From Thermoplasmata archaeon (GTDB taxonomy: Archaea > Thermoplasmatota > Thermoplasmata > Lutacidiplasmatales > UBA184), in contig DATJRX010000005.1 of NCBI GenBank assembly GCA_035504395.1, positions 3,334-67,333 on the forward strand: 64,000 nt of DNA. The letters run 5' to 3'. The translations under genes were made by a program, and so were the position numbers. Below the pieces are notes generated by a model. It saw nothing but the letters and a program-made list of their open reading frames with translations, was not told the origin of the DNA and did no database searches. This document shows, one piece after another, positions 38 to 60,498 of this stretch (position 1 is its first letter; the number at the start of each line of letters is the position of its first letter).

Positions 38-1465
38 TTACGTCGAGATCAATTCGTAGCCGCCGAGGGTCGTGTTGTAGAACGTCTGATCCCAGGTGGG
101 GGGCGAATTCTCCAGGATCGGAGTCATGTACGCCGCCGAGAGGTCCTCGGCGACCGCGCCCACCGGTCGAATCTCGAGGTTCGTCAGCCACCCCGTCATC
201 TTGTACTTCGCAATGGCCGCGCTGAACTGAGGTTGCGCCTCGAACTGCGTCGAGGCCGCCACAAAGGCTGGGCCCGCGTAGGGGATCGCGTGCGTCCAGG
301 TCATCGAGAGGTTGAGATCGACGATCGTGAACACCACCGTGTGGCTGGGCTTCTTGTAGTCGATCGTGAGCTCGAGGACTGTCCCGGCTGGCGTGACCGT
401 ACCGGGCCCCGGCCAGTTGCCGGGCCAATAGTTCGCCTCGCAGTTGTCGGAGCCGTTGCCGTTCACGTACCACGGTGCGATGCGCCCGCCGGCATCCAGG
501 TCCACCCCCAACTGGAAGAACCCCGAGCAACCGTCGTCCCGCGCATTCGAGACGTTCATCGCGTTGATTTGCCAGCTGATGTCGTGCGACTTTGGAACGG
601 ACCAGCTGTCCAGCGTCATGGTCGCGGAGAACTCATCGTAGGTCGGGAGCAACCGCACGTTGGATCCGGAGCCCTCGCCGTAGAGCGTCATGTTGTTCAG
701 CCCCGGAAAGTAACCGGGGATGTAGTCGGTCGTGACCATCAGGTCGGAATAGTACACGGTTCCGCTTGTCGTCTCGACCTGAACGGAAGTGGAGTTGAGC
801 GCGTTGGCGTCGTACGCCACGAACGGCGGGGAACTGCTCCCGTCGACGGAGACGAGGAATCGGTTGGTCGTCGGATAATCCCAGCCCGCGGTAATGTAGA
901 CCCAGCCCGCCGGGTAGGCGCCGTGTGCCGGGACCACTCCGACGACGGTCAGGTTGCTCAGATTCCCTCCCGCCACGACCTTGCCGGATTTGACCCCGAT
1001 CACCAGTCCGAATTGATGACCCGGCACCCCCAGACCGAAGTATCCGGCGGAGTCTCCGGTCGCTCGGATCGCTGCCTCCAGCGACCAGCCGGCGTTCCCG
1101 CGGACGAACCCGCTCTTATCGAACTCGATCTGGGGTGTGGCCGATGTCGCGACCGATCGGAGGGCGGGCTCCCCGGAGTAATTGACACTGGTCTGGATCC
1201 TCGGGGTTGCGCCGCTGGCCTTCTGCCATCCGGCCAGCGACCCATTCTCGAAGTTCGCGACGAATGTGAAGGCGAGGTCCTTATCCAGCGCGGTTCCGGC
1301 AGGATCGGGCAGCGCTTTCCCGGACCCGGCTGGGGAGGTAGTCAGCGCCGTCGAGGCGGGGAACACCCCGAGCCCCAGCAGACCGACTACCGCCAAGGCG
1401 ACGATGGGCCGAAGGTTGCGTTCGAGGCGGGACCCGTGGGTCCCTGACTCCGAACGCGAGGACAC
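38..1465 (-). CDS. secreted hypothetical protein (475 aa), N-terminal signal/TM segment, many N-x-S/T sequons
   Basis: Full-length ORF on the minus strand. Hydrophobic N-terminus (IVALAVVGLLGLGVF) follows a short basic leader; composition is Gly/Ser/Thr/Asn-rich and non-repetitive. No recognisable catalytic motif. Confidence 0.6.
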   Translation of the reverse strand: MSSRSESGTHGSRLERNLRPIVALAVVGLLGLGVFPASTALTTSPAGSGKALPDPAGTALDKDLAFTFVANFENGSLAGWQKASGATPRIQTSVNYSGEPALRSVATSATPQIEFDKSGFVRGNAGWSLEAAIRATGDSAGYFGLGVPGHQFGLVIGVKSGKVVAGGNLSNLTVVGVVPAHGAYPAGWVYITAGWDYPTTNRFLVSVDGSSSPPFVAYDANALNSTSVQVETTSGTVYYSDLMVTTDYIPGYFPGLNNMTLYGEGSGSNVRLLPTYDEFSATMTLDSWSVPKSHDISWQINAMNVSNARDDGCSGFFQLGVDLDAGGRIAPWYVNGNGSDNCEANYWPGNWPGPGTVTPAGTVLELTIDYKKPSHTVVFTIVDLNLSMTWTHAIPYAGPAFVAASTQFEAQPQFSAAIAKYKMTGWLTNLEIRPVGAVAEDLSAAYMTPILENSPPTWDQTFYNTTLGGYELIST

Positions 1466-9637: not shown

Positions 9638-10624
9638 CTATGCGATCGAACCGGCGCTCAGGGCGCTCTCGATGAGCTTCCGCTCGATCACCGCGATCCC
9701 CTCGGAGACCGAGGACTTGCTCCGGTCGAGCCGCCGGGCCAGCTCGGTGAGCGTGACGCCGCGGGGGACCGCGAAGTAGCCCGCGGCCATCGCCTCGCTC
9801 AACAGCGACTGCTGGGTCTGGGTGAGCATCGGTAGGTGGCTGCGGAGGGACCGACGCCGGACCGAGACCACTTGGACATCGGAGTCGGCCCGACGAGCGT
9901 GCCGGAGCACTTCCTTGAACTCCGCGTAGCGCGCGACGACCTCCCATGTGATGACCCCGGCCTGAAGTCGAAGGGGAAACTGCAGGGGGAGCCGAAGTCG
10001 CCGGTAGAGAGCGATCACGGGGGGGTTTCGGTACTTGATACGGTAGAGACACCCGTCCGCGACCTCCGCAAGACTGTCGACCTGGAGCACGTCCCGGAAT
10101 CGGCCGATCTCATCGGCCCACTCTCCCGGGCTCCCGCCGCCGATCCAGTAGTCCGAGACCGAGACGTCGGGGGTCACCTCGGTACGGTTGAGCGCCTCCA
10201 GCCTCAGTTGCGGGTGGCGCAGGCTGAACGGGCCCGTCCAGAGTTGCGAGGGGATCCGCACCTTGAGCGTCGCCACGAGGAGCCGTCCGGCCGACTCGTC
10301 CGCGGACTCCCGGAGCTTCCGCAATCGTTCGGAATCGGACCTCGAGGAGCTCGAGCCAGCGCGAGCCTTCGTCGCGCCCGTCCCCCGGGCCCGCTTCGTC
10401 ACATCGATCCCGGCGAGTGGGCCCCATCGGTCGCGCAGGGGATATACCCTCCGAAGCGCCCTCGCCGGCCGCCGCCGACGCGGCACGGGCGTCGCCCTCC
10501 GGCACCCGAACCCGTTCGGTTCGGCGAAGAGGTTCGGTGGAAGCTCATCCCCCGGGGCCAACCTCGCCCGAACCACGCCGATGATGTCTCCGAATGTGCC
10601 GCCGGACCGACGCGAAGCGACCAC
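9638..10624 (-). CDS. Bat-type HTH_10 (bacterio-opsin-activator-like) DNA-binding regulator
   Basis: C-terminal HTH_10 signature LTQTQQSLLSEAMAAGYFAVPRGVTLTELARRLDRSKSSVSEGIAVIERKLIE. Paralog of 11498..12241. Start uncertain; no internal ATG, so GTG/TTG is possible. Confidence 0.75.
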   Translation of the reverse strand: MVASRRSGGTFGDIIGVVRARLAPGDELPPNLFAEPNGFGCRRATPVPRRRRPARALRRVYPLRDRWGPLAGIDVTKRARGTGATKARAGSSSSRSDSERLRKLRESADESAGRLLVATLKVRIPSQLWTGPFSLRHPQLRLEALNRTEVTPDVSVSDYWIGGGSPGEWADEIGRFRDVLQVDSLAEVADGCLYRIKYRNPPVIALYRRLRLPLQFPLRLQAGVITWEVVARYAEFKEVLRHARRADSDVQVVSVRRRSLRSHLPMLTQTQQSLLSEAMAAGYFAVPRGVTLTELARRLDRSKSSVSEGIAVIERKLIESALSAGSIA

Positions 10625-12677: not shown

Positions 12678-14615
12678 ATGCGGCCTCACCTTGCCGTCGG
12701 ACTGACCGTCGTGACGATCGCCCTGCTCCTGCTGTTTGTCCCGGGCTCACTCCCGCGGACGACGGCCGCCCCGGCCTCGGGCCCGGCATTCGCCGTCGTG
12801 GGTCCGGCGGCCGCGGTCGCCCCCAACCCGTTCTGGTCCGGAATGCCGGCCTCGGTCGCGATCGGCCAGCCCAACCTGACCTCAGCCTCCTCCCCCACGC
12901 AAGCGAACCAGTCGAACATCATTCCCGATCCGGAACTGAGCTGCATGGACGCAAGCGGGAACCTGTGGGTCCCGAACTTCGGCGGTGCGCGCGTGACCGA
13001 GTATCTCGCCCCGCTCTCGACGAACGAGTCCGCCTCGCTCGTGATCGGGCAGTCCGGGTTCTACTCCGACCTCGAAGGCATCAACCAGTCGACCTTTGGC
13101 GCGCCCGCGTCGTGTACGTTCGATTCCCATGGCGATCTCTGGGTGCCGGACTTCTTCGGGGGTCGCGTCCTCGAGTTCGTGCCGCCGTTCTCGAACGGCA
13201 TGAACGCGTCGCTCGTGCTGGGCGCGCCGAACTTCAACTCGACGGGCGGTACGGCGACGGCCTCGACCTTCGGTGGCCCGGCGTCGGTCGCCTTTGACGC
13301 GCAGGGGAATCTGTACGTCGCCGACGCGTCCGCCAACCGGATCCTCGAGTTCACTCCGCCGTTCTCGACCGGGATGTCCGCCTCGGCGGTCCTCGGTCAG
13401 ACGACCTTCCTCGGGGTTCAGGGTGGAACGACCGCGGTGAATCTGAGCTTCCCGATCGGGCTCGGCTTCGGCGGCGGCGTGCTCTGGGTCGCCGACGCTG
13501 ACAACGGGCGGGTGCTGGGCTTCCCGACCCCGGCCGTGGCCGGCGAGGGTGCCCGCTACGTCCTGGGCCAGCCGAACTTCACGTCCCTCGCGGGAGTGGG
13601 GGAGTTCTCCCTCAATAGCCCGGAGAGCGTTGCGGTCGACGCCCAAGGGAATCTGTGGGTCTCGGACTCCCGCAACAACCGGGTGCTGGAGTACGTCGCC
13701 CCCCTCGCGACGAACGAATCCCCCTCCGTGGTCATCGGCCAAACCTCCTTCCTCGGAATCGCGCCCGGCACCAGTCCGACCACCCTGTCGTTCCCGCTCG
13801 GCGCCTTCACGTCTCCGACGACCGGCGACCTGATCGTCAGCGACGGGAGCAACGATCGGGTGCTCGAGTACGTCCCCAGTTCCTACCCGGTGAAGTTCGT
13901 GGCCACCGGTCTCCCCGCGAGCGCCGCGTGGTCGGTCACCTTCGCCGGCGCGTCCGAGTCCGGCTCGGCCTCGGGCATCGACCTGATCGAATGGAACGGA
14001 AGCTACGCTTGGAGCGCGGCCCCGGTGGCGGGGTACGTCGTGGCGCCCGCGTCCGGAGTGCTCAACCTCAACGGGACCGGCGCCACGATCACCCTCGCGT
14101 TCACGCCGGTGACCTTCTCCGTGACGTTCAACGCGATCGGCCTGCCCTCCACCGCCACGTGGACCGTGACGCTGGACGGGGTGGCGCACTCGGGGGCCGG
14201 TGACGCCGCGGTCAGCTTCGCCATCGCCAACGGATCGTACTCATACTCGGTCGCGAGCGTCAGCGGCTACACGACGTCGCCGGCGAGCGGGACGGTCTCC
14301 GTCGCCGGGGAGCCCCAGGAGGTCGGGATCGGATTCTTCTCGACGTCCTCGGGGTCGCCGTCCGGCTCGGGCTCGTCCTCCAACGGGATCAGCCCGCTCC
14401 TCGCGGCGTTGCTTGCCGTAGTGGGCCTCATCGTGGGCGCGGTCGTCGGTGTCCTGATCGGACGTCGCCGGGGCGGGAGCCCGCCTCCCCCGCCCTCGCC
14501 GTCGACCCTCTCGCCGCCCGCGAAGGCGACGAGCGTCAGTCCCCCGGCTCCATGGTCGGAGTCCCCCTCTGCTCCGTCGGGCCCCGGAACGCCGCCGCCG
14601 GGCGCGCTCCAGTAG
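12678..14615 (+). CDS. NHL-repeat beta-propeller surface protein with signal peptide, Ig-like region, C-terminal TM anchor and Pro-rich tail
   Basis: Repeated D(A/S)xGNL(W/Y)V(A/S/P)D...NR(V/I)LE(F/Y) units, at least 5. An N-terminal signal-like segment, a C-terminal TM helix (LLAALLAVVGLIVGAVVGVLIG) and an RRRG..PPPPPSP tail. More than 20 N-x-S/T sequons. TATA-like ATTTTA about 28 nt upstream of the ATG. Confidence 0.8.
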   Translation: MRPHLAVGLTVVTIALLLLFVPGSLPRTTAAPASGPAFAVVGPAAAVAPNPFWSGMPASVAIGQPNLTSASSPTQANQSNIIPDPELSCMDASGNLWVPNFGGARVTEYLAPLSTNESASLVIGQSGFYSDLEGINQSTFGAPASCTFDSHGDLWVPDFFGGRVLEFVPPFSNGMNASLVLGAPNFNSTGGTATASTFGGPASVAFDAQGNLYVADASANRILEFTPPFSTGMSASAVLGQTTFLGVQGGTTAVNLSFPIGLGFGGGVLWVADADNGRVLGFPTPAVAGEGARYVLGQPNFTSLAGVGEFSLNSPESVAVDAQGNLWVSDSRNNRVLEYVAPLATNESPSVVIGQTSFLGIAPGTSPTTLSFPLGAFTSPTTGDLIVSDGSNDRVLEYVPSSYPVKFVATGLPASAAWSVTFAGASESGSASGIDLIEWNGSYAWSAAPVAGYVVAPASGVLNLNGTGATITLAFTPVTFSVTFNAIGLPSTATWTVTLDGVAHSGAGDAAVSFAIANGSYSYSVASVSGYTTSPASGTVSVAGEPQEVGIGFFSTSSGSPSGSGSSSNGISPLLAALLAVVGLIVGAVVGVLIGRRRGGSPPPPPSPSTLSPPAKATSVSPPAPWSESPSAPSGPGTPPPGALQ

Positions 14616-14903: not shown

Positions 14904-15779
14904 TCAGAAGTGGGCGAGGAGCCAGGCGTGGATCTCGGGAATGCGTTCGCTTAGGAGACCCAGGTGCCCCGCGTCCGGGAGCAGGTGCGGTTCCGCACGG
15001 GGAAGGTGGGCCGCCAGCCACTGGCCGTGCGCGAACGGGACGAACCGGTCATGGGCTCCGTGCCAGATCTGCAGAGGGCAGCGCACGCTGGACAGGTCGA
15101 ATCCCCACGGGATCGTGTCGGAAAGGTTGTCGTCCCTCATGCCGTCCGCCCCGTGGCGCAGGCCCTCGCGCCCCTCCTCGACGAAGAAGCGGACCAGCTC
15201 GGGCGTCAGCGCGGCCCGGTCGACCTCCGAGAGGAGCGTCGTGAGGATGGACTGGAGCTGTTCGGGGGTCGCGCGAGCATACTCGATCGACTCTCGCTGG
15301 AGCTTCGCTTCCCACGCCGCCGGATCTGAGAGCATGAGGTGCACGTCCTCGCGGTTGGCCTCCCCCATCCCCTCGAGCGGGTCGAGCCCCTCCGCCCCCG
15401 GGGGCGCCACGCCCGCCAGACTCGTCGCCGCGACGACCCGCCCGGGCAGCCGGGCCGCGCAGGCGATCGCCGGAGCGCCTCCCCCGGAGTGACCCCAGAC
15501 CGCGAACCGGTCGATCCCGAGCTGATCGGCGACCGCGGCAACGTCCGGAGCGACGTCGCCGACCCGCCGGCCGCGCCGGGCGGTCGATCCTCCGTAGCCG
15601 GGGCGGTCGTAGCCGATCAGCCGGATGCCTCTCCGCCGGGCGTCGGCGACGTGCGGTGGGTACAGCAAGCGGGACCCCGGGGTCCCGTGGAGCCGAAAGA
15701 CCGGCCGACCGTCCGGATCCCCGTCCTCACGCACCGTCAGGCGGCGCCCGTCGTCCCGCCGGACCTCGTGCTCGCGCAT
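14904..15779 (-). CDS. alpha/beta hydrolase fold protein (proline iminopeptidase/epoxide hydrolase-like)
   Basis: C-terminal 291 aa of the 747-aa ORF. ATG confirmed at 15777-15779. Nucleophile elbow GHSGGG, HGTPGS oxyanion region, and C-terminal Asp/His (HGAHDRFVP ... DAGHL). Confidence 0.8.
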   Translation of the reverse strand: MREHEVRRDDGRRLTVREDGDPDGRPVFRLHGTPGSRLLYPPHVADARRRGIRLIGYDRPGYGGSTARRGRRVGDVAPDVAAVADQLGIDRFAVWGHSGGGAPAIACAARLPGRVVAATSLAGVAPPGAEGLDPLEGMGEANREDVHLMLSDPAAWEAKLQRESIEYARATPEQLQSILTTLLSEVDRAALTPELVRFFVEEGREGLRHGADGMRDDNLSDTIPWGFDLSSVRCPLQIWHGAHDRFVPFAHGQWLAAHLPRAEPHLLPDAGHLGLLSERIPEIHAWLLAHF

Positions 15780-15802
15780 GGAGCGAGACGTGGGCAGCGC
15801 CG

Positions 15803-16207
15803 TCAGGTGACCGGCCCTTCCTGCCACAGCATGAGCAGATTGCCCTCGGGGTCCTGGAAGAACGCCAGCGCGCCGATCCGCTCGAAGGCGATGGGCCCCT
15901 CGGTCCGAAGGGTCATCCCTCCGCGCGGCGCCCGCTGGAACTTGGCTCCCGCGCGACGCAGCTGCTTCACCGCCTTGCGGATGTTCTTCACGACGAACGT
16001 CGAGTACGCGAGGCTCCGCTTCTCCCGCTCCGGGGGCGCGATCAGCCAGACCTCGGCGCCTCCGACGCGGATGTGCGCCCAGGAGTTGCGCATCGCGCCA
16101 GCGCCGCGCGCCCGGAGCTTCGCGCCGAGCGCCTGGGTATAGAATCGGAGAGCCCGGGGGAGTTTCCGGACCGGGATCAACGTCACATGCTCGGACTTGA
16201 ATGCCAT
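15803..16207 (-). CDS. VOC-family protein (glyoxalase/bleomycin-resistance/dioxygenase fold)
   Basis: 134 aa. ATG confirmed at 16205-16207. HVTLIPVRKLPRALRFYTQALGAKL is a typical VOC betaalphabetabetabeta start. Immediately upstream of the hydrolase on the same strand. Confidence 0.7.
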   Translation of the reverse strand: MAFKSEHVTLIPVRKLPRALRFYTQALGAKLRARGAGAMRNSWAHIRVGGAEVWLIAPPEREKRSLAYSTFVVKNIRKAVKQLRRAGAKFQRAPRGGMTLRTEGPIAFERIGALAFFQDPEGNLLMLWQEGPVT

Positions 16208-16478
16208 CGTGTTTCCTCTCACCGAGGTCCCGCGGACCCCCGCGCGCCGGGGACTCTCCCGTACCATATCTAGCTGACCGAGCGCCCCGAGGGTGCGTCG
16301 GTCGTGGCCCGCGACTGGGAAACCCCGGGAGCGGCGATCGAGTCTCGACCGCGGGCCCGACGGGCCGGTACCGCCCGAGCGGGGCGGACGCCCCCGGGAC
16401 CGCGTCAACTCCGATTGACTCCGCGCCTAAGTCGTTCCCGCTCCCATGACCACTGGATGTCGGACAGGGGGGAGAACG

Positions 16479-17126
16479 ATGCAACCGGGAGCGCATCTCG
16501 CCGTGTTCGCCACTGTGCTGGTCGTGCTCGCCTTCATCGTCGGCTCGGCCGTGATGTTCGTGGCCGGCTCGATCCACCCCGGGGCCACGGGACCGCAGGG
16601 CACCGGGGGACAGAACGGCACCGCCGGTGCTAGCGGTGCCAACGGGACCAGCGGGGCTCCCGGCACGAACGGTTCCAACGGGCAGAACGGTACGGACGGT
16701 ACCAATGGCACCACGTGGATCAGCCAATGGTACGGATTCAACGCGAGCTTCCTGCCAACGGGGAACCTCACCTACCTCGCGGTGTCGGTCGAGGGCTGCA
16801 CCGGTGTGGGCAGCGGTGCGTACTACTGCACGGTCAATGTCTCGAACACGTGCGGACCCAAGGACACCGCCCTGATCCAGCCGGCGTGGGCCTGTAAGAA
16901 CTACGAGTTCGCGCTCGTGAACGTCTCCTACGCGATCAACGGGTCGTTCTATTTCGCCGGATCCAACCCCAGCCTCGGGTACGCCCTCGGGTGGGGGCAA
17001 TCCATCGAGATCCAGCTCTGGTTCCAAACGATCGTCTGCGGAGTCTACGCGAGCGGGAGTTCGGCGCCCACGGTACCCACCCTGACTCCGGCCGTCGAGC
17101 TGGGGTTCGCTCAGGTGGCGAACTGA
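16479..17126 (+). CDS. membrane-anchored collagen-like (Gly-X-Y)15 repeat protein with Cys-rich C-terminal domain
   Basis: N-terminal TM (LAVFATVLVVLAFIVGSAVMFVAG), then 15 uninterrupted G-X-Y triplets (GATGPQGTGGQNGTAGASGANGTSGAPGTNGSNGQNGTDGTNGT) carrying N-G-T/S sequons, then a 140-aa Cys-containing domain. Preceded by a G-rich SD (GGGGGGAGAACG). Confidence 0.7.
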   Translation: MQPGAHLAVFATVLVVLAFIVGSAVMFVAGSIHPGATGPQGTGGQNGTAGASGANGTSGAPGTNGSNGQNGTDGTNGTTWISQWYGFNASFLPTGNLTYLAVSVEGCTGVGSGAYYCTVNVSNTCGPKDTALIQPAWACKNYEFALVNVSYAINGSFYFAGSNPSLGYALGWGQSIEIQLWFQTIVCGVYASGSSAPTVPTLTPAVELGFAQVAN

Positions 17127-17207
17127 CCGGGAACGGTCCGAGGGCACGCCCTGCCCACGACGCCGCCGGACTCGCGCTCCGAGCGGCGGGCCTTCTCTCG
17201 GCTCGCG

Positions 17208-17603
17208 TCAGCGCGGCGTAGGGCGGAAGCGCCTCCGACCGGCCCTGTAGAGACTGATGCGATGGCCGTCGGGGTCCCGCAGATAGGCGTGCTCCCAGCC
17301 CCACGGCATCCGCTTCGGCGGTTGGTCGAGGTGCACCCCGTTCCTGACCAGAGACCGGCAGAGAGCCCTCAGATCGGCGGTCTCGAAGTACAGGACGACC
17401 GGCCGCCGGCCGGCTTGTCGACCGCGCTCGTCGCTCGCGTGGAGCGCGAGGGTGGCGCTGCCCCGAGGTCCTTTCAACCGAGCGTATCCGGGCATCGACT
17501 CGATCTCCTGGAAGCCGAGCCGATCGCGGTAGAATCGGAGCGCGGGCCCGACTTTCCGGACATAGATGATCACGTGATTCAGCGCCGCCCGAGGACCGGC
17601 CAT
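17208..17603 (-). CDS. VOC-family protein (glyoxalase-like)
   Basis: LNHVIIYVRKVGPALRFYRDRLGFQEI...DPDGHRISLY is a VOC fold signature. Confidence 0.7.
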   Translation of the reverse strand: MAGPRAALNHVIIYVRKVGPALRFYRDRLGFQEIESMPGYARLKGPRGSATLALHASDERGRQAGRRPVVLYFETADLRALCRSLVRNGVHLDQPPKRMPWGWEHAYLRDPDGHRISLYRAGRRRFRPTPR

Positions 17604-17728
17604 GCGACCCGGAAGCCCGGCGCGCGTAAAGGCCGGCCCGTCGAAATGATTCGTGGACCTCGCGGTCGGTTCGCGGTGTCAACTGCCGTTGACGCCGGGG
17701 TTAACCTTGGTCGGGTCCAGTCCCCGTC

Positions 17729-25512: not shown

Positions 25513-25736
25513 GGGGCTCCGACCGCCCCGAGGTCACCCCGCCGTAAAAGGCAGTGGGAGCACGCCGACCCTCGGCGGAGGTCGGCGGGTCCGCGGCGCC
25601 CGAGGGGTTTCGCTCTACGCCCCGGGCGCGTCCCATCCGAGGGTCGGCCCGCTACGGCCGAGCGAACCCCGACCCAACCCTCAAGACCCCCGGCCGACCT
25701 TGCAATGGTGAGGTCGCAGGGCCTCCGGGTTCTCCA

Positions 25737-27842
25737 GTGTCGCTCCTCCGTCCGGCGGGGCCGCCCGCGGCGATCGCGACCGCGATCGGGATCGCATTCG
25801 TGCTGGTCGTGGCGCTGTTCGCCCCAACCGTCCCGGCTGGCGGGGGCGCCAGTTCCTCCCGGGAGCCGACCGGTCCCGCGTCGGGACCGCCCGACCTGTC
25901 TACGAGCGACCTCGGCACCGGCTACGACGGGAGCGCGCCGGCATCGCCGCCCGTGCGGATCTGCGGGAACGGGTCCGAGCTCGACGGTCCGACCACTCCG
26001 CCCGACGGAGCGGTGGTCCTCCCGGCCGGCGACAACGAGAACATGACCGCGAGCTACGAGCTCGCTCCCAACACGACCTACTGGCTCGCCCCGGGGGCGC
26101 ACACCCTCGGGACCGGACCGTACTCCCAGTTCCAGCCCGACTGGGGCGACACGTTCGTGGGTGGGCCGGGCGCGGTCGTCAACGGTCAGTCCCTCAACCA
26201 GTTCGCCTTCACCGCGAACCCCAACGTCGGGTCGCCGAACGTCACGATCGAGTACCTCACGATCGAGGACTTCGTCTCGGGAGAGGGAGAGGGCGTGGTC
26301 AATCAGGCGAACCAATCCGGCTGGGTCGTCGCGCACAACACCGTCGGTCCGAACGAGTTCAACTGCTCGAACCCCGGGGGAGCCGGCGTCATGCTCGGCT
26401 CGAACACCGAGGTCGAGTACAACTGTCTCGCGAGCAACGGCGAGTACGGGTTCAGCTCGTTCGGCGGGGCGACGAACATCACGCTGTCGGACAACGAGAT
26501 CGCGGACAACGATGCCCTCGGGGGCTACGACCACCCCGACAGCGCGATCCAGTGCGGCTGCTCCGGTGGCGGGAAGTTCTGGATCTCGAGCGACGTCACC
26601 ATCGAGGACAACTACATCCACGATAACGGCGACCCCGGGATCTGGGTCGACACCGACAACACGGGGTTCCTCATCGCGCACAACTTCATCGCGGACAACT
26701 ACGCGGAGGGGATCATCTACGAGATCAGCTACAATGGCCTGATTGAGAACAACACGCTCCTCGGGAACGCGATCGGCGAGGCGCCCGAGGTCGCCGGGTT
26801 CCCGGCGTCCGCGATCTACATCTCCGAGTCCGGGTTCGACGACCGGGTCGCGAACCCGTTCCACGCGACGTCGTTCGAGATCGAGTACAACGTTCTCAGC
26901 GACAACCGGGGCGGGGTCGTCATCTGGGAGAACGCGAACCGATACTGCTCGGACGGCAGCGACCAGGTCTGCACGCTGGTCGATCCGGCCGTCTATACCC
27001 TCGCGAGCTGCGCCACCCACCTGGGCGAGCGAACGCCCGTCGACTATTACGACGGCTGCCGGTGGAAGGCCCAGAACGTGACGGTGGCCCGCAACCAGTT
27101 CTCCTTCACGGCGGCCGCGCTCGGACCCCAGTGCACGGTCGACAACCTCTGCGGGGACAACGGGCTATTCAGCGACTACGGCGAGGCGCCGTACGCGGGT
27201 CCGGCGGTCCCGACGAACATCACCTTCCTCCAGCACGACCAGTTCGAGGACAACAGCTACTCCGGACCGTGGAACTTCGAGGCCTGGAGCCAGGGCAACC
27301 TCGACAACCCGGTCAACTGGACCGTCTGGCGGGCGAACGTGACCGACCGATGCAGCACGGCGGGCGAGAACGAATCGGGCACCTGCGACAGCGGCTTCGG
27401 CCAGGACTCGGGGAGCATCTTCAACGCCTCCGTCGACCCCGAGATCGAGGCGTTCACCGCCGCGCCCGCGAGCGTTCCCGTCGGACATACGAGCCTCCTG
27501 ACCGTCACCGCCGAGGGCGGGATCGGCTCGCTGTCGTTCGCCTACGTCGGGCTTCCGCCCGGGTGCGCATCGGCGAACTTGGCCGAGCTCACCTGCGCCC
27601 CGACCGCTCCGGGCGATTTCACGCCCGCGATCTTCGTCAACGACTCCGAGGATCACTCGTCCGAGGCGAGCACCTCGCTCGCGGTGACGCGCGTCGCTCC
27701 GACGCCTTCTCCTCCGGGCCACTCGAGCGAGGCGCCCGGCGACCTCCTGTTCGGACTCTGGCCCTACCTGCTCGCCGCCGGCCTGGCGCTCGTCGCGGTC
27801 GTGGCCGCTGTGGCTTGGACGGCACGTCGCCGGAAGGTCTAG
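25737..27842 (+). CDS. right-handed parallel beta-helix repeat surface protein with C-terminal TM anchor
   Basis: Multiple pectate-lyase-like turns (NNTLLGNAIG, IADNYAEGIIYEIS, IHDNGDPGIWVD, SDNEIADND). An N-terminal signal-like helix and a C-terminal TM (LWPYLLAAGLALVAVVAAVAW) plus RRRKV. The start was set at the in-frame GTG 25737 before the signal peptide; the ORF extends to 25554. Confidence 0.7.
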   Translation: MSLLRPAGPPAAIATAIGIAFVLVVALFAPTVPAGGGASSSREPTGPASGPPDLSTSDLGTGYDGSAPASPPVRICGNGSELDGPTTPPDGAVVLPAGDNENMTASYELAPNTTYWLAPGAHTLGTGPYSQFQPDWGDTFVGGPGAVVNGQSLNQFAFTANPNVGSPNVTIEYLTIEDFVSGEGEGVVNQANQSGWVVAHNTVGPNEFNCSNPGGAGVMLGSNTEVEYNCLASNGEYGFSSFGGATNITLSDNEIADNDALGGYDHPDSAIQCGCSGGGKFWISSDVTIEDNYIHDNGDPGIWVDTDNTGFLIAHNFIADNYAEGIIYEISYNGLIENNTLLGNAIGEAPEVAGFPASAIYISESGFDDRVANPFHATSFEIEYNVLSDNRGGVVIWENANRYCSDGSDQVCTLVDPAVYTLASCATHLGERTPVDYYDGCRWKAQNVTVARNQFSFTAAALGPQCTVDNLCGDNGLFSDYGEAPYAGPAVPTNITFLQHDQFEDNSYSGPWNFEAWSQGNLDNPVNWTVWRANVTDRCSTAGENESGTCDSGFGQDSGSIFNASVDPEIEAFTAAPASVPVGHTSLLTVTAEGGIGSLSFAYVGLPPGCASANLAELTCAPTAPGDFTPAIFVNDSEDHSSEASTSLAVTRVAPTPSPPGHSSEAPGDLLFGLWPYLLAAGLALVAVVAAVAWTARRRKV

Positions 27843-31022: not shown

Positions 31023-32987
31023 TCAGCCGCTCGAACGCGCCGGACGCACCAGGGGTCGCGTCGGGAGCCCATACTTTCGCAGCAGGTCCACGAACCGCGG
31101 GTCGGTGCGGATCGAGTCGAACGTGGCCGACCGGTAGTAGAGCCACAGCGTCGGATCCCCTTCGCGGTACTCCTTCTCGAGCAGGTCGAGGGCGATCGAT
31201 CCTTCGCCGAGGGCCGCGTGCAGCATCGCGAGGTGGGAGTCCGAGGTGTACGACTGGGTCTCGCCCCGGGCCGCCTCGGCGAGGATCTCGCGGGCGACCT
31301 TGGGCCGGCCGAGCACCGCGTTCAGCATGGCGTGATCGAACCGCTCGTTGTCGTCTGCCGGGGCGATCGCGACGTCGGCTTCGCGCGTCGCCTCGTCGCG
31401 GCGGCCGAGCTCGAGCAGCGTGAGGCCGAGCATCGTGTGCGGGGAGAGCGAGGTGGGTTCCCGCGCGATCCGGGCCCGGCCATGACGAACGCTCGCCTCG
31501 GGGTCGTCGGACGCCGACTCGGCCCACGCGAGGGTCCCCTCGTGCTCGCCGGCCGGGTCCAGGCGTACCGCAAGAGCCAGCTCGGCGCGCGCCTCGGCGA
31601 ACCGCTCGAGGGCGATCAGCATCAGCCCAAAGAACGTGTGCGCGTCGATGTTGCTGGGATTCAGCTCGATCGCCCGGCGGAACTCCCGCTCCGCGGTCGC
31701 CCAGTCATGATCGTACTGCATCGCGATGTTGCCGAGCGCGGCGTGGGCCTCCGCCGAGTCCGGGTCGAGCGCGAGGGCCTTCGCGGCGAGCTCGCGGGCG
31801 CGGGGGATCGCCTCCCGGAACGACAGGTGGTCGCCCGCCGCTCGCACGTAGAGGTTCGCCCACGAGGCGAACGCCTCGGCGAACTTGGGGTCGAGGCGGG
31901 TGGCGGCCTCGAACGAGCGCACCGCCTCGATGTGGTGCGCCGCGTCGAACCCGGACGAGGCGGCGAGTCCACGGAGGTAGAGGTCGTACGCCTCGAGGCT
32001 GGTGGTCGGCGGCCGGCGCGCGCGGGCCGGCTCCGACCGGGCCAGCTGCAATCGAAGCGCCTCGGCGGTCCGTTCGGCGATGTCCGACTGCACCTCGAAG
32101 ACGTCGGTGAGCTCCCGATTGTAGGTCCCGGCCCAGACATGCCGCTGGGTGCTCACGTCGATGAGCTGGAGCGTGATCCGGATCTTCTGTCCGGACTTCC
32201 GGACGCTGCCTTCGAGGACCGTGTCGACCCCGAGCTCCTGGCCGACCTGGGCGATCGACTTCGGCGCGGTCTTGTACGGCAGGATCGACGTCCGGGCGGT
32301 CACGCTGAGGCCCGGCACCTGGGAGAGGACCGCGATCAGCTCCTCCGTCAGCCCGTCGGCGAAGTACTCGTCGTGCGGATCCGGGCTGATGTTGGCGAGC
32401 GGCAGCACCGCGAGCTGGCGCCCCAACGACTCGGCCGCCATCCGACCCTCCTTGCGTACGGCCGCCCACGGGGGGACGACCCGGTACACCCCCATCGGCA
32501 CGCGGATGTTCTTGAGCGCGACGGGCGGCAGCCGGGTGAAGGTCGCCTCGAGCTTGTTCTGGATCTGGTCGTAGACCTGCTGGGTCACGCTGATCCCGCC
32601 CGGCTCGGAGAGCGGTTCCACGCGCGACGCGATGTTGACGGCATCCCCCAGCACGTCGCCGTCCGCCTGCACCACGTCCCCGACATGCAGCCCGATGCGC
32701 ACGAGGATCCGCTCGGAGGCGGGCAGCGCGGCGTTCCGCTCGTGGAGCGCTTTCTGCACGTCGAGCGCGCACTGGCCCGCGTCCAGGGCACTCTCGAACT
32801 CGATGAGGAACGCGTCCCCGACCGTCTTGATCTCGCGTCCGTGGTGGCGGGCGAAGATCGGGCGGAGCAGCGCGTTGTGCGTTTCGAGCGCCGAGAGCGC
32901 GGCGGCCTCGTCGGTCTGGGCGAGAGCCGAGTACCCCACCATGTCCGTGAACATGATGGCAGCCAAGCGGCGGTGCGAAGCGGCCAC
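31023..32987 (-). CDS. class III adenylyl/guanylyl cyclase (CHD) fused to TolB-N-like region and TPR repeats
   Basis: CHD metal-binding Asp residues in AIMFTDMVGYS and KTVGDAFL. Middle region LAVLPLANISPDPHDEYFADGLTEELI. C-terminal TPR-like helices. Start chosen at the GTG 24-30 nt downstream of the TTTATTT element; the ORF extends to 33119. Confidence 0.8.
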   Translation of the reverse strand: MAASHRRLAAIMFTDMVGYSALAQTDEAAALSALETHNALLRPIFARHHGREIKTVGDAFLIEFESALDAGQCALDVQKALHERNAALPASERILVRIGLHVGDVVQADGDVLGDAVNIASRVEPLSEPGGISVTQQVYDQIQNKLEATFTRLPPVALKNIRVPMGVYRVVPPWAAVRKEGRMAAESLGRQLAVLPLANISPDPHDEYFADGLTEELIAVLSQVPGLSVTARTSILPYKTAPKSIAQVGQELGVDTVLEGSVRKSGQKIRITLQLIDVSTQRHVWAGTYNRELTDVFEVQSDIAERTAEALRLQLARSEPARARRPPTTSLEAYDLYLRGLAASSGFDAAHHIEAVRSFEAATRLDPKFAEAFASWANLYVRAAGDHLSFREAIPRARELAAKALALDPDSAEAHAALGNIAMQYDHDWATAEREFRRAIELNPSNIDAHTFFGLMLIALERFAEARAELALAVRLDPAGEHEGTLAWAESASDDPEASVRHGRARIAREPTSLSPHTMLGLTLLELGRRDEATREADVAIAPADDNERFDHAMLNAVLGRPKVAREILAEAARGETQSYTSDSHLAMLHAALGEGSIALDLLEKEYREGDPTLWLYYRSATFDSIRTDPRFVDLLRKYGLPTRPLVRPARSSG

Positions 32988-33006
32988 GATCCCCGGACGG
33001 CGCTCC

Positions 33007-33025
33007 GGCGAAATAAACGCTCGCC
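33007..33025. promoter_or_regulatory. GGCGA-AATAAACGC-TCGCC palindromic TATA-like element between divergent cyclase genes
   Basis: 5-bp inverted arms flank an AT-rich core. It sits 24-30 nt upstream of the candidate GTG start (32987) of the minus-strand cyclase. Confidence 0.4.
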
Positions 33026-33128
33026 GGGATGCTGAAACGGGGCGGGACCCGGCCGTCCGGCCGGCGCGGGCTCCGGTCGCCCGGGGGAGGTCGTCGCCCC
33101 GCGGGAGACGTCGGCGCACGCACGCCTA

Positions 33129-35147
33129 ATGAGGCCGGGTTCGGTCCCCCGATCCGTGGCGCGGGAGTCCCGTCGGCTCGCCGCGATCATGTTCACCGAC
33201 CTCGTGGGGTTCACGTCCCTCGGCCAGCGCAACGAGGGAGAGGCGCTCCGCCTCCGTCGGGAGCATCAGGAGATCGTCCGACCCCTCCTCGCGGCGCACG
33301 GCGGTCGGGAGGTCAAGACGACCGGCGATGGGTTCCTCGTCGAGTTCCCGAGCGCCGTGGAGTCGGTCCGCTGCGCGGTCGAGATCCAGGGCGCCGTCGG
33401 GCGACGGAACGCGCTCGCCGGATCCGCAGAGCCGATCCGGCTCCGCATCGGCATCCACGTGGGCGACGTCGTGGACGACGCCGGCGACATCGTCGGCGAC
33501 GCGGTGAACGTCGCGTCCCGGATCGAACCGCTCGCGGAACCGGGCGGCGTCTGCGTCTCGGGCTCGGTGTACGACCAGGTGCGCAACAAGCTCGAGGTGC
33601 CGCTCGAGCGGGTCGGCACGCGCGAGCTGAAGCACGTGGAGTTCCCGGTCGACATCTACCGGGTCCGGCTCGGCGAGACGTTCGAGCCGCGAGAGCGGGT
33701 CGTCGAGCCGGGACCGGACGCGCGCCCGCGCCTGGCCGTGCTTCCGATGGCCAACTTGAGCCCGGATACCGCGGACGATTACTTCGCGGACGGGCTCACC
33801 GAGGAACTGATCTCCCAGACCTCGAGGATCCCGGACCTCCGCGTCATCGCCCGGACCTCGGTACTGCAGTACAAGGGGTCGACGAAGCCGCTCCGCACCG
33901 TGGCCCACGAGCTCGGCGTGGGGCTCGCGCTCGAGGGGTCGGTGCGCAAGTCCGGCGACCGCCTCCGCGTGACCGTCCAGCTGGTCGACGCGCGCTCCGA
34001 GGAACATCTCTGGTCGTCGCGCTACGACCGGCCGCTCGGCGACATCTTCGCGATCCAGGACGATATCGCGCAGCAGGTCGCCGCCTCGATGGCCGCCCAC
34101 ATGACCGGGCGGGGCGCTGCTCCGGGGCGCCGGGTCCTCCCGGCGGTCCGCGACACGACGGACCTTCGGGCGTACACCGCCTACCTGCACGGCCGCAAGC
34201 TCCTCTCCGAGAAGGATTCGGAGACGACCGTGGCGCGGGCCGTCGAACTGTTCGAGGAAGCGGAGCGCATCGATCCGAATTTCGCGCGCGCCCGCGTCGC
34301 CCGGGCCGAGGCCCTGATGTGGCTCATGAACGAGGGCGCGGTCCCGTTGCTCGACGGCGAGAAGGAGGTGCGCACGGAGCTCGCCCGGGCCATCGAGCTC
34401 GACGCCTCGCTGGCGGAGGCGCACGCCGCGCTCGCCGGCCTCCTCCTCGGGACCGACGAGCTCGCGGCGTCCGAGCGCGAGAGCCGCCGGGCGATGGAGC
34501 TCAACCCGAACGTCATCGACTCGTACCGGTGGCTCGCCCAGATCGCGGCGGGTGATGGGCGCCTGGACGAGGCGGCGCGGCTGCTCGAGACCGCGGTCCA
34601 GATCGACCCCCTCGACATCAACATCCTCGCCTTCCTCGGCCGGATCTACTTCTACGCCGGGCACATCGATCGCGCGCTCGAGCATTGGAAGCGCACGGAG
34701 ACGCTCGTGCCGTACCGGACGCAAGCACACCGGGCGGAGTACGCGCTCTCGATCGGGGACCTCGACGCGGCGCAGACCTACGTCCGCGACCTGGAGCGGC
34801 TGCGACCGGAGAGCGTGTGGACCGAGGTCTACCGCGGGGCGCTCGCGGCCCGCCGCGGCCGTCCGGAGGAGACGCGCGCCGCGATCGAGCGCCTCGAACG
34901 CCGGGGCCAGACGGGCGAGATGACCGCGCTGTTCACCGGCGCGCTCTACCACGCCCTCGGGGAGGACGACGCGTTCGTGCGCTGCATGGAGGAAGCGTTC
35001 GACCAACACTCGTTGCCGTTCCTGGAGCTCCTGTACTCGCCCCTCTACGAGCGCGCCCGCGCCGACCCCCGGATCCGCGCCCTGATCGAGCGCCAGCGGG
35101 CGCTGCGCACGGCCGAGGGGGATACCCCCCCGCGCCGAACGCCTTAA
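33129..35147 (+). CDS. class III adenylyl/guanylyl cyclase-TolB-N-like-TPR protein (paralog of 31023..32987, divergent)
   Basis: AIMFTDLVGFTS, KTTGDGFLVEF and LAVLPMANLSPDTADDYFADGLTEELI, then C-terminal TPRs. About 45% identity to the neighbour across the cyclase domain. Confidence 0.85.
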   Translation: MRPGSVPRSVARESRRLAAIMFTDLVGFTSLGQRNEGEALRLRREHQEIVRPLLAAHGGREVKTTGDGFLVEFPSAVESVRCAVEIQGAVGRRNALAGSAEPIRLRIGIHVGDVVDDAGDIVGDAVNVASRIEPLAEPGGVCVSGSVYDQVRNKLEVPLERVGTRELKHVEFPVDIYRVRLGETFEPRERVVEPGPDARPRLAVLPMANLSPDTADDYFADGLTEELISQTSRIPDLRVIARTSVLQYKGSTKPLRTVAHELGVGLALEGSVRKSGDRLRVTVQLVDARSEEHLWSSRYDRPLGDIFAIQDDIAQQVAASMAAHMTGRGAAPGRRVLPAVRDTTDLRAYTAYLHGRKLLSEKDSETTVARAVELFEEAERIDPNFARARVARAEALMWLMNEGAVPLLDGEKEVRTELARAIELDASLAEAHAALAGLLLGTDELAASERESRRAMELNPNVIDSYRWLAQIAAGDGRLDEAARLLETAVQIDPLDINILAFLGRIYFYAGHIDRALEHWKRTETLVPYRTQAHRAEYALSIGDLDAAQTYVRDLERLRPESVWTEVYRGALAARRGRPEETRAAIERLERRGQTGEMTALFTGALYHALGEDDAFVRCMEEAFDQHSLPFLELLYSPLYERARADPRIRALIERQRALRTAEGDTPPRRTP

Positions 35148-44380: not shown

Positions 44381-44995
44381 ATGGGCAGTTCGGCCTACCG
44401 CTACATGGCCCGTTCGTTCCGGCAGACCCTCGGCGCCGAGGGGGCCGCGCTCCGTCATGAGCGGCTGCTCACCTGGCGCGGCGAGCACACGGTCCAGCGC
44501 CTCGAGCACCCGACCCGGCTCGACCGGGCGCGGGCCCTCGGCTTCAAGGCGAAGGGCGGGTTCGTCGTGGTCCGCGTCCGGGTCCGGCGCGGCGGCCAGC
44601 GCAAGCGCGCGATCATCGCGGGGCGCCGCCCGAAGCACAAGGGGGTGCTCCGGATGACCCTCAAGAAGAGCCTGCGACGCATCGCCGAGGAGCGCGCGCA
44701 GAAGCACTTCCCGAACCTCGAGGTCCTGAACTCCTACTGGGTCGGCGAGGACGGGAAGCAGAAGTTCTTCGAAGTGCTGCTCCTCGACCCGTCCCACCCC
44801 GAGGTCCGCGCGGATCCCGCGCTCTCGTGGATCACCGCGCCGGCGCAGACGCGCCGGGTCTACCGCGGGCTCACGAGCGCGGGCAAGGAAGGCCGGGGCC
44901 TCCGCTGGAAGGGCAAGGGCACGGAGCGGTTCCGCCCGTCGTACCAGCGCAACCGGCGCGACACGCGGCGCACGCAGTCGAAGGTCATCCCGTAG
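44381..44995 (+). CDS. rpl15e: 50S ribosomal protein L15e
   Basis: SAYRY...RLLTWR...PTRLDRARALGFKAKGGFVVVRVRVRRGG...SLRRIAEERAQKHFPNLEVLNSYWVGEDGKQKFFEVLLLDPSHP is highly conserved across L15e. Confidence 0.95.
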   Translation: MGSSAYRYMARSFRQTLGAEGAALRHERLLTWRGEHTVQRLEHPTRLDRARALGFKAKGGFVVVRVRVRRGGQRKRAIIAGRRPKHKGVLRMTLKKSLRRIAEERAQKHFPNLEVLNSYWVGEDGKQKFFEVLLLDPSHPEVRADPALSWITAPAQTRRVYRGLTSAGKEGRGLRWKGKGTERFRPSYQRNRRDTRRTQSKVIP

Positions 44996-52940: not shown

Positions 52941-54055
52941 CGCTCGAAGAGCAGATCACCGCGGTCGAGGACGAGATCCGGAACACCGCGTACAACAAGG
53001 CGACCAGCGGCCACATCGGGCGGCTCAAGGCGAAGCTCGCGGTGCTCCGCCTCGAGCGCGAGACCCGGGCGAAGGGGAAGGGCGGTGGGGTCGGCTACGG
53101 CGTCCGGAAGAGCGGCCACGCCACGGTCGGGCTCGTCGGGTACCCGTCGGTCGGAAAGTCGACGTTGCTCAACCGGTTGACCGCGGCGGAGAGCGAGACC
53201 GGGGCCTACGACTTCACGACGGTCTCGATCATTCCCGGGATGCTCCGCTGGGGCGGAGCCTCGATCCAGATCCTCGACATGCCCGGGCTCGTGCCGGGGG
53301 CGGCCAAGGGACGTGGTCGCGGGCGGGAGGTGCTGTCGGTCGTGCGCTCGGTCGACCTGATCCTGTTCATGATCGACCCGGAGCACACCAACCTGCGCGC
53401 CCTGGTCACGGAACTCGAGGGGGCCGGGGTCCGCATCAACGGGCGACCGCCCAAGATCGTCGTGACGAAGGCGGATCGGGGCGGGCTCACGATCTCGAGC
53501 ACCGTTCGGCTCACGCATCTCGCCGGCGGGCTCGCGAGCCAGATCGCCCGGGAGTTCGGGATGCACAACGGCTCGATCGTGTTCCGCGAGGACGCGACGG
53601 CCGACCAGCTCATCGACGTCCTCGCCGGGAATCGCGTCTACGTGCCGGCGTTGCTCTCGGTCAACAAGAGCGAGCTCCTGACGCCCGCCGACCGGGCGCG
53701 CATGGTGCTGGAGCAGCGACCCTTCGATCCGATCTTCGTCTCGGCGCGGGACCGGCTCGGCCTGGACGCGCTGGTCGACCGCATCGGCCACGCGCTGCGC
53801 TTCATCCGGGTGTACGTCAAGCCGCCCGGGCTGCCGCCCGACAAGGACGAGCCGGTGATCCTTCGGGAAGGGGACACGATCCAGTCGCTGCTCGGGCGGC
53901 TCCCCACGGACCTCGATCGGGGGTTCCGAACCGCGCTCGTGTGGGGGAAGAGCGCCCGATTCCCGGGTCAGACCGTCGGTCGGGAGCACGTCCTCGCGGA
54001 CGAGGACATCGTCACGATCATCATCGCGCGCGGGGCGGCCCGCGCAGCGGTCTAA
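52934..54055 (+). CDS. developmentally regulated GTP-binding protein (DRG/Rbg1-family Obg-like GTPase with TGS domain)
   Basis: N-terminal [38 protein letters not shown]. G1 [9 protein letters not shown], G3 DMPG, G4 TKAD. C-terminal TGS ([10 protein letters not shown]...GDTI). Confidence 0.9.
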   Translation: [373 protein letters not shown]

Positions 54056-54782
54056 CGCGGAGCGTCCCCCGCCCGCCGAACAGCTCCGCGCGGGCGAGGC
54101 CCCCGACGAGGTAGTGGCCCCGGTGGAACGGGTCAAGGCGAACCGAGGGCGCGAGGTCGACCCACGAACGGAGCGCCCGCTCGGCGTCCGCGAGGTGCTC
54201 GGACGCCTCCCGCCCGCGTCCCATGCTGGCCGTCTTGAGCGCGACCACGACCGAGGCCCCGGGACCGGCGAGGAACAGCTCCGCGTTCGCCCGGACGATC
54301 GCGACCTGATCCGGTTGGGCGATGTCCGCGTAGACCCCTCGAACCTCGGGGACGAACGGGGCGTACTCCCGGGGCACGCGCGCGTCCCCCAGGATCGGCA
54401 GGAGTCCGGGCCAGCGCTGCGCGAGGGCGAGCAACCGGGCGAACGATCGGGGACTGCGCTCCACCGCGTAGACCCGGCCCGAGGGAGCGATGAGGTCGGC
54501 CGCGTGGGACGCCGTCGTCCCCGTGGCCGCCCCGAGGTAGAGCCAGTCCTCCCCGCTCGCCGGGACCGGTCCCTTCCAGTCGTGGACGAGGGCGGCGGCG
54601 AGCTTGCTCCGCCCCGGCTCGAACGAGCGGTAGGTGCGATCCTCTCGGTGGATCCATCGCTCGCCGTAGACCGGTGGGAGGCTCCCGGCGGTCTCGGTGA
54701 CGAGCTCGATCCGCTCGGCGGAGGCGATCCGAGCGAGCCGGGGCGAGCGAGCGTCCGGGACAGGGCGACGACGCTCCCTCAT
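54021..54782 (-). CDS. flpA: fibrillarin-like rRNA/tRNA 2'-O-methyltransferase
   Basis: LYLGAATGTTASHAADLIAPSGRVYAVERSPR ... ILGDARVP ... VYADIAQPDQ matches the fibrillarin SAM motifs. Follows nop5 on the same strand. Confidence 0.8.
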   Translation of the reverse strand: MRERRRPVPDARSPRLARIASAERIELVTETAGSLPPVYGERWIHREDRTYRSFEPGRSKLAAALVHDWKGPVPASGEDWLYLGAATGTTASHAADLIAPSGRVYAVERSPRSFARLLALAQRWPGLLPILGDARVPREYAPFVPEVRGVYADIAQPDQVAIVRANAELFLAGPGASVVVALKTASMGRGREASEHLADAERALRSWVDLAPSVRLDPFHRGHYLVGGLARAELFGGRGTLRVRPLRGPPRAR

Positions 54783-55675: not shown

Positions 55676-55678
55676 ACC

Positions 55679-57085: not shown

Positions 57086-57169
57086 CCGAGGAACCTGGGC
57101 GAGAGTAGGCCTCCCGCCCGGTCCACTCGGCCCCGCTTCTTAAGCGGTGCGCACGCGGTTACGCGGGGT

Positions 57170-57487: not shown

Positions 57488-57518
57488 CTTTCTCACTCCG
57501 TGGACTTTCGGGGGAACC

Positions 57519-58379: not shown

Positions 58380-58386
58380 CGCGACC

Positions 58387-59025: not shown

Positions 59026-59151
59026 GAACCCCTCGCGGGCGCGGCGGCCGAGCCAGCCCCTCTACATAAGGCTTAGCGACTCGTCCGTCAGAGCGGCGCC
59101 GCCCGACGCTCCGTTCCCGAGCCGGGGTCGTGAGGACCCCCGGGCTCGCCC

Positions 59152-59469: not shown

Positions 59470-59521
59470 ACCGCGCTGCCGGAAGTAGCAGCGAGCCCAT
59501 CGCGTATCTACGTTCCGTCGA

Positions 59522-60185: not shown

Positions 60186-60206
60186 GACCCGCCTCGGCGG
60201 CCGCCG

Positions 60207-60491: not shown

Positions 60492-60498
60492 GGGAACC

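Follow-up and report, generated by a model that had tools for sequence, protein, structure and literature searches.

Does an archaeal cell carry a collagen-type stalk on its surface, and what would such a stalk display? The question is raised by a short gene in a 64-kb stretch of DNA from a Thermoplasmata archaeon (the whole stretch analysed, hereafter the window), which lies at 16479 to 17126 on the forward strand and encodes, in order, a hydrophobic segment, fifteen Gly-X-Y triplets and a Cys-containing head. We hold with moderate confidence that its product may be a membrane-anchored, trimeric, N-glycosylated collagen-type stalk displaying a beta head. The gene and the parts of its product are as follows.

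16479 to 17126, forward strand: coding sequence of the collagen-like protein, 215 amino acids plus stop, identical to NCBI HTW76239.1.
16497 to 16568, forward strand: single hydrophobic helix, predicted signal-anchor, residues 7 to 30 (Kyte-Doolittle, AlphaFold2, family conservation).
16581 to 16715, forward strand: (Gly-X-Y)15 collagen-like region, residues 35 to 79, with 5 N-G-T/S sequons (repeat count, PF01391).
16716 to 17123, forward strand: predicted all-beta head, residues 80 to 215, with 136 amino acids, 5 Cys and 5 sequons (alignments, AlphaFold2).
16467 to 16474, forward strand: Shine-Dalgarno-like GGGGGGAG, 4 nucleotides 5' of the ATG (read from the sequence).

Translation of the window gives a real open reading frame (ORF) of 215 amino acids plus stop with the layout MQPGAHLAVFATVLVVLAFIVGSAVMFVAGSIHP-(GXY)15-WISQWYGF...LGFAQVAN, and the NCBI record of the protein is likewise 215 amino acids long. 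GC contents at codon positions 1, 2 and 3 are 0.56, 0.56 and 0.85, and in comparison with two orthologues third-position changes dominate, with 47 to 65 synonymous codon differences; the third-position GC and this substitution pattern indicate that the frame is truly coding. Together with the conserved homologues, they rule out a low-complexity artefact or an antisense gene, and the gene is confirmed as genuine. The ATG at 16479, preceded by GGGGGGAG, matches the start positions of the orthologues, among which GAGA(A/G)(A/C)(C/G)ATG is kept at the start. An in-frame upstream ATG at 16446, which would add two Arg, was rejected because it is not conserved, unlike the ATG at 16479 with its Shine-Dalgarno-like run. 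A 747-amino acid antisense ORF at 14904 to 17147 (reverse strand) covers the whole gene and was dismissed as a high-GC shadow ORF; it is real only in its 3' part, 14904 to 15764, which is an alpha/beta-hydrolase gene.

The anatomy described by the original prediction, which was made from the sequence alone, stands in nearly all its parts. Fifteen perfect Gly-X-Y triplets had been claimed and are found without interruption at residues 35 to 79, the next-longest run in the six frames of the window being 6. The Pfam Collagen search that had been proposed as a check gives PF01391 at 29.5 bits (gathering cut-off 27.2, E 6.2e-7, residues 34 to 77), so that the repeat reaches the gathering score of the family; its length is also well beyond a minimum of six uninterrupted triplets, and PF01391 is on record for most homologues. 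The N-terminal transmembrane (TM) anchor takes the form of a single hydrophobic stretch (Kyte-Doolittle 2.74), the "at least five" N-G-T/S sequons of the repeat number exactly five, and the Cys-containing head of about 140 amino acids has 136, with 5 Cys. The artefact that the same prediction had considered, a repeat with neither a conserved C-terminal domain nor orthologues, falls away, since the C-terminal domain is conserved and related genomes do contain orthologues. No DNA-level tandem repeat was detected by Tandem Repeats Finder, hence the periodicity exists at the protein level only.

About 17 distinct relatives were found across 5.8 billion proteins together with genome and metagenome scans. 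A word-indexed search of the 5.8 billion proteins with the head only returned, apart from the protein used as query, a single homologue (58% identical); exhaustive HMMER searching of 1.84 billion representatives gave 7 relatives, and a profile search gave 11; the genome and metagenome scans added the loci L005 (Thermoplasmata metagenome-assembled genome JOPF076), L011 and L013. All taxon-labelled homologues are Thermoplasmata, the remainder being unlabelled metagenome contigs. Two subfamilies can be distinguished, with a mutual identity of only about 30-35%: (i) a close subfamily, 55-65% identical to the window protein, with a 136-amino acid head that contains a 15-residue insertion and a second Cys pair (TCGP...WAC), and (ii) a distant subfamily with a head of roughly 110 amino acids. 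The plan is the same in all full-length members: a hydrophobic helix at the N-terminus, then an uninterrupted Gly-X-Y run of 10 to 23 triplets and a head; the repeat is unbroken in all 14 members examined, and the repeat indels between orthologues are whole triplets. Such strict Gly periodicity maintained across about 30-35% identity is an argument for a structure in which every third residue has to be Gly. Within the population the repeat number is invariant, as all seven members of the 90% cluster have 215 amino acids. Codon 43 (window 16605 to 16607) specifies Gly at a Y position (GTG-GQN) in the window and Ala (GTA-GQN) in the cluster representative, from another sample, a strain-level polymorphism within the repeat.

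The second distinctive property of the protein is its content of N-glycosylation sequons, which lie at N46, N55, N64, N70 and N76 in the repeat (all N-G-T/S) and at N88, N96, N120, N148 and N154 in the head (N-X-S/T). Composition-preserving shuffles hold 2.5 +/- 1.4 sequons and none of 20,000 reached 10, and the density of 4.7 per 100 amino acids is 7 to 30 times that of 16 cytosolic-type window proteins (0 to 0.7). N-X-S/T is therefore enriched over chance on the predicted extracellular segment, as in substrates of AglB; no AglB gene was present among the scanned window ORFs. Of the 202 Y positions in 13 family sequences, 102 are Asn, and Thr or Ser stand at 85 of the 202 X positions. Moreover, the two are coupled: in 14 sequences, Ser or Thr stands at the next X in 80 of 117 cases after Asn at Y and in 10 of 95 after another Y residue (odds ratio 18), and within the Asn-containing block of the same set the counts are 80/117 and 7/52 (odds ratio 14), a large effect whose p-values overstate independence since the sequences are related. 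The final two triplets before the head read N-G-[ST]-N-G-[ST] without exception in both subfamilies. This coupling and the invariant motif are what selection for N-X-S/T sequons predicts, and they lend statistical support to such selection as opposed to mere Asn richness.

In the model that we infer for topology, trimerisation, triple helix, glycosylation, disulfides and binding function, the N-terminal helix would insert in the cytoplasmic membrane with the N-terminus inside and the remainder of the protein outside. Three chains would come together, with nucleation most likely at the head, as in other collagens that have a head at the C-terminus, and their 45-residue Gly-X-Y segments would form a triple helix of collagen type with a length of about 13 nm (at 0.286 nm per residue; about 8.6 to 20 nm for the 10 to 23 triplets of the family). 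Asn at Y followed by Gly-Ser/Thr would be N-glycosylated by the archaeal oligosaccharyltransferase, giving a sugar-coated stalk whose coat may offset the very low proline content. A disulfide-stabilised beta-sandwich head would thereby be held off the membrane to contact a partner, for which polysaccharides, other cells, the surface of a substrate and an outer layer of the envelope are candidates. The simplest guess is that the head adheres to surfaces, polymers or cells, and any specific ligand would deserve far less confidence than the stalk itself. With a lower probability, the Asn-Gly-Ser/Thr triplets would represent an undescribed collagen-helix design in which densely N-glycosylated Asn at Y replaces hydroxyproline or charge pairs as stabiliser; an archaeal cell would then bear a triple helix sheathed in sugar and topped by a beta-sandwich head for which the libraries searched hold no match.

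Several observations weigh against this model. The window repeat is very low in imino acids, with 2 Pro and 1 charged residue among its 30 X/Y positions, and Asn at Y and Thr at X are reportedly poor triple-helix formers in host-guest peptides, so the unmodified helix could be only marginally stable and glycosylation may be important for its stability. In BclA-type stalks, O-glycosylated Thr is believed to stabilise the helix; the case of Thr is discussed in PMC11923368. The N-glycans of animal collagens have been described on the C-propeptide and not in the helix (PMC11012932), and at such density on a triple helix they would therefore be unusual. In the close subfamily no charged residue flanks the TM helix on either side, so that the positive-inside rule gives no indication in the case of the window protein and the topology of this subfamily rests on indirect evidence. 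Finally, the head is without a recognisable relative, hence homology gives no clue to a ligand, and the gene has no conserved neighbourhood that could hint at a partner, its surroundings differing in every lineage.

The scarcity of Pro and the near absence of charge pairs in the window repeat, like the reported weakness of its Asn and Thr as helix formers, would also suit a flexible, heavily N-glycosylated spacer of mucin type on a monomeric membrane protein, with no stable triple helix, in which Gly periodicity would only place the sequons in an exposed, extended chain. AlphaFold2 gives the segment no structure (the monomer is disordered, at a predicted local distance difference test (pLDDT) score of 32 to 36), and the Pfam score is only just over the cut-off. 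A glycosylated linker, however, needs no Gly at every third residue, and yet 10 to 23 triplets are unbroken in 14 of 14 members; the membrane-proximal (N-terminal) triplets are Pro-rich in the classic collagen manner in most other members, for example GPPGLPGPVGPPG, and all orthologue indels respect the triplet. We give this explanation a small but real chance of being right. An intramolecular polyproline-II bundle of the snow-flea antifreeze type was rejected, as the monomer model shows the repeat without a compact fold; that the model holds no such alternative also counts in favour of the triple helix.

If a trimeric stalk is accepted, it could still serve as an envelope spacer that keeps an S-layer or glycocalyx tethered at a set distance from the membrane, in the manner of SlaB in Sulfolobales, and not as an adhesin. 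The family's range of stalk lengths lies within the generally known widths of the archaeal pseudoperiplasm, and the protein is small, simple and of constant length across the population. However, no S-layer-like gene adjoins it in any of the seven loci, the family is confined to a narrow clade where an essential envelope component would be expected to be more widespread, and the repeat number differs between close relatives. We judge this role unlikely, though a serious alternative.

The 19-residue Kyte-Doolittle mean peaks at 2.74 over residues 7 to 25 (the next-best window in the protein reaches 0.93), AlphaFold2 places a helix at residues 6 to 23, and all full-length members of the family have an N-terminal hydrophobic segment. 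The hydrophobic stretch is followed by a motif of small residues (VAG|S), and the close subfamily keeps the N-terminus MQxGxHL; both could be read as signs of a signal peptide that is cleaved, or of a class III signal of pilin type, in which case the protein would be released or built into a fibre. The hydrophobic run of about 24 residues has, however, the length of a TM segment and not that of a 7-15 residue h-region; by eye there is no positive n-region and no [KR]-[GA] prepilin motif (MQPGAHLAVF..., no Lys or Arg), and neither the N-termini of the distant subfamily nor the family overall share a cleavage motif. Release or pilin-like assembly is thus highly unlikely, and an uncleaved signal-anchor is favoured over a cleaved signal peptide by the length of the run and the lack of an n-region, as judged by eye.

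The orientation of this predicted anchor is suggested by several indirect lines. In the distant subfamily and in L013, Lys or Arg precede the helix (MAASNRRGG-, MAGWFPRAESAR-, MADSTK-, MMSGTK-), which points to N-in. The window protein has zero Arg and 7% Asn, against 6-18% Arg and about 1-2% Asn in its cytosolic neighbours. The window encodes three further proteins that are predicted to be secreted, at 38 to 1465 (reverse strand; no Pfam family), 12678 to 14615 (forward strand; NHL repeats) and 25554 to 27842 (forward strand; right-handed beta-helix, NosD-like), and these have 2-3% Arg, 4.5-6.8% Asn and about 2 sequons per 100 amino acids. A low-Arg, high-Asn, sequon-rich signature divides surface from cytosolic proteins in this host. 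Sequons, composition, conserved Cys pairs and the Lys/Arg before the helix in relatives all favour an N-in/C-out arrangement.

The head is well conserved, its invariant positions being C107, G111, G113, C117, G161, P164, L180-W-F-Q183, G193 and L208. Cys107 and Cys117 flank an invariant G-x-G hairpin turn, and Cys125 and Cys139 lie within the subfamily-specific insertion, the second Cys pair occurring only together with that insertion; these patterns suggest disulfides. The AlphaFold2 model built on the 14-sequence alignment is confident and all-beta, with 9 strands (pLDDT 87.5, predicted template-modelling score 0.79), with one low-confidence loop at the site of the subfamily insertion, and a full-length run gives the same head fold. 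Searches for relatives were negative: no Pfam family was matched at E <= 1 by the 14 heads except for three weak single-member matches (E 0.007-0.18), NCBIfam and PHROG gave no match to the protein outside the repeat (the longest PHROG match reaches residue 95), a profile search of Protein Data Bank (PDB) sequences with the head gave nothing at E < 0.02, and Foldseek found no match at E <= 1e-3 in the PDB or BFVD. The best Foldseek template-modelling (TM) scores, 0.3-0.4, are to generic beta-sandwiches (mu-adaptin subdomain, CBM2, cupredoxin), and the weak, non-significant resemblance to a CBM2-type sandwich may be taken only as a lead. The proposal of a C1q-like or BclA-like head did not survive these searches. 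The jelly-roll families PF18573 (BclA_C), PF00386 (C1q) and PF00229 (TNF) are not matched, PDB sequences and Foldseek offer no support for a C1q/TNF/BclA-like fold, and there is no C1q, TNF or BclA chain among the matches, the top TM-score being 0.40.

A viral or mobile-element reading, with the gene part of an integrated element and its product a fibre or spike of the virion, deserves hardly any credence: a tyrosine recombinase does lie directly downstream of the orthologues in L001/L002/L004 and L011, and PHROG tail-fibre families match the protein at E about 1e-7, but these matches fall essentially within the Gly-X-Y region (the longest to residue 95), no relatives occur among 2.9 million IMG/VR contigs and BFVD holds no significant fold match, results on which a viral origin was rejected, while the window neighbours are of housekeeping type (glyoxalases, Usp, alpha/beta hydrolase), the neighbourhood is the same in two strain-level metagenome contigs (L009 and L010, 98.6-99.5% identical to the window across 4.3-4.8 kb, with the same gene order) and no tRNA or att-like feature was found.

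The genes around the orthologues were also compared. A conserved operon partner was rejected, the neighbourhoods differing between lineages. A tyrosine recombinase gene (Phage_integrase) is convergent with the orthologue at L001 10735 to 11679 (reverse strand) and at L011 943 to 1935 (reverse strand), where it overlaps the stop codon of the collagen-like gene by 4 nucleotides; there is no recombinase beside the window copy. A phase-variation mechanism with an invertible promoter, an idea prompted by this recombinase, was discarded: the inverted repeats are only weak and imperfect (70-76%), no more than DNA of 70% GC would lead one to expect, and the window has none. In the distant subfamily, a membrane protein of roughly 250 amino acids with a Cys-rich, zinc-ribbon-like C-terminus is encoded downstream and convergently at L006 8626 to 9378 (reverse strand) and L008 3171 to 3905 (reverse strand), the two being 39% identical, and has no homologue in the window, L001, L005 or L007.

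Two candidate regulatory elements precede the gene.

16404 to 16419, no strand: palindrome GTCAAC-N4-ATTGAC, candidate operator or promoter element, 75 nucleotides upstream of the ATG.
16426 to 16432, forward strand: TATA-like CCTAAGT (CCTATAGT in L001), putative promoter, about 49 nucleotides upstream of the ATG (three-region alignment).

GTCAAC-N4-(A/G)TTGAC lies 74 to 76 nucleotides upstream of the ATG in the window, in L001 (about 9927 to 9942) and in L005 (about 1106 to 1121), despite different flanking genes; it is absent upstream of the distant-subfamily genes. Three exact copies of GTCAA-N6-TTGAC occur in the window, where 0.45 would be expected even with one mismatch allowed, and 1 of 100 shuffles reached three. 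The other two copies are at 17678 to 17693, 36 nucleotides upstream of a Usp gene, and at 1556 to 1571, upstream of a sequon-rich secreted ORF; all three are intergenic and in promoter regions. The motif is probably a shared transcription-factor site or operator.

The host is a Thermoplasmata archaeon of roughly 70% GC. The exact protein is recorded as HTW76239.1, "MAG TPA: collagen-like protein [Thermoplasmata archaeon]", on a 69-kb contig, two further exact window proteins bear the same organism label, and the window encodes the archaeal/eukaryotic-type markers L15e, P0 with its insertion domain, L1, fibrillarin, Nop5, aIF2-alpha and PAC2; the archaeal origin supposed from the start is thus borne out. 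An archaeal information-processing cluster (L15e, fibrillarin, Nop5, an amidophosphoribosyltransferase-like protein, P0, L1, aIF2-alpha) occupies 44381 to 44995 and 54021 to 61472, and the presence of such a core cluster indicates that the contig is chromosomal. On both sides of the collagen-like gene lie genes of the glyoxalase/bleomycin-resistance fold (15803 to 16408 and 17208 to 17603, both on the reverse strand), and beyond them Usp, DUF1801 and cupin genes, a stress or detoxification type of setting not found at the orthologue loci. Farther away, a large HerA/DUF87- and TrwB-like AAA ATPase of 816 amino acids (50490 to 52940, reverse strand) marks a possible DNA-translocation or secretion module. 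Two adenylate/guanylate cyclase plus TPR proteins are encoded divergently, head to head and 9 nucleotides apart, at 31023 to 33119 (reverse strand) and 33129 to 35147 (forward strand); a relative with 71% DNA identity lies about 4 kb upstream of the L001 orthologue, and another is present in L011.

Prokaryotic collagen-like proteins have been studied almost wholly in bacteria and viruses, and we know of no characterised archaeal one, nor do the papers searched describe any. With about 215 amino acids and a clear anatomy of anchor, stalk and head, the present family supplies a small archaeal case, and the unusual coupling of Asn at Y to Ser/Thr in its repeat leads one to expect N-glycans on the triple helix itself. 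If this is true, it would be a new route to triple-helix stabilisation, relevant to recombinant collagen design, and would give a first means of access to the cell surface of a high-GC Thermoplasmata lineage from soil that has not been cultured. If the stalk is a flexible linker, the finding shrinks to a lineage-specific surface glycoprotein.

By name, the window protein and one other member (P0009), both machine-named "collagen-like protein" by NCBI, belong to the machine-annotated archaeal collagen-like entries (IPR008160 / PF01391). The view that such proteins are rare in archaea is fair, but they are not new, as these names show and as archaeal collagen-like proteins have been counted in bulk, with triplet statistics that highlight KGD/KGE, TGA/TGP and QGP and not NGT/NGS (PMC11923368). 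No published description of the family, its head or its Asn-Gly-Ser/Thr (NGT/NGS) pattern was found in the literature searched.

Among better-known systems, streptococcal Scl1 and Scl2 and Lcl of Legionella are likewise prokaryotic trimeric collagen stalks that show a globular domain on the cell surface. Their polarity is opposite, with an N-terminal head and a C-terminal LPXTG cell-wall anchor, whereas the window protein has neither LPXTG nor a C-terminal TM segment (C-terminus ...LGFAQVAN); their repeats are rich in Pro and charged residues, and their hosts are bacterial pathogens. The NCBIfam Scl/Lcl models score 20-23 bits against cut-offs of 325-500 (325-400 for the Scl1/Scl2 models NF038329 and NF038330), in the Gly-X-Y region only.

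The type II transmembrane collagens of eukaryotes (ectodysplasin A, collagens XIII/XVII/XXIII/XXV, MARCO, SR-A) resemble the archaeal protein in the order of their parts and in likely topology, having in common a short cytoplasmic N-terminus, a signal-anchor helix, an extracellular triple helix and a C-terminal globular head. In ectodysplasin A, a short Gly-X-Y run is followed by a beta-sandwich trimer. There is no relationship in sequence or fold, however; the helices of these collagens are stabilised by Pro/Hyp, and the archaeal protein is far smaller (215 amino acids) and Asn-rich. The likeness is one of convergence, not of membership.

BclA and related exosporium glycoproteins of Bacillus and Clostridioides share with the archaeal family an N-terminal anchoring segment, an uninterrupted Gly-X-Y stalk in which the number of triplets differs among relatives, triplets rich in Ser/Thr that can be glycosylated, and a globular domain of beta type at the C-terminus. 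In BclA the stalk is glycosylated and trimerisation starts from that domain (PMC12357932 and general knowledge), which makes it a precedent for the proposed model. In contrast, the BclA head is a C1q/TNF-type jelly roll (PF18573), a match lacking for the archaeal head; BclA is attached to the exosporium through a leader peptide and not through a TM helix, its sugars are O-linked to Thr where N-linked sequons at Asn(Y) are found here, and it belongs to a bacterial spore and not to an archaeal cell. By analogy, BclA would be the closest counterpart in function and the type II transmembrane collagens, such as ectodysplasin A, the closest in topology, with the archaeal protein a member of neither group.

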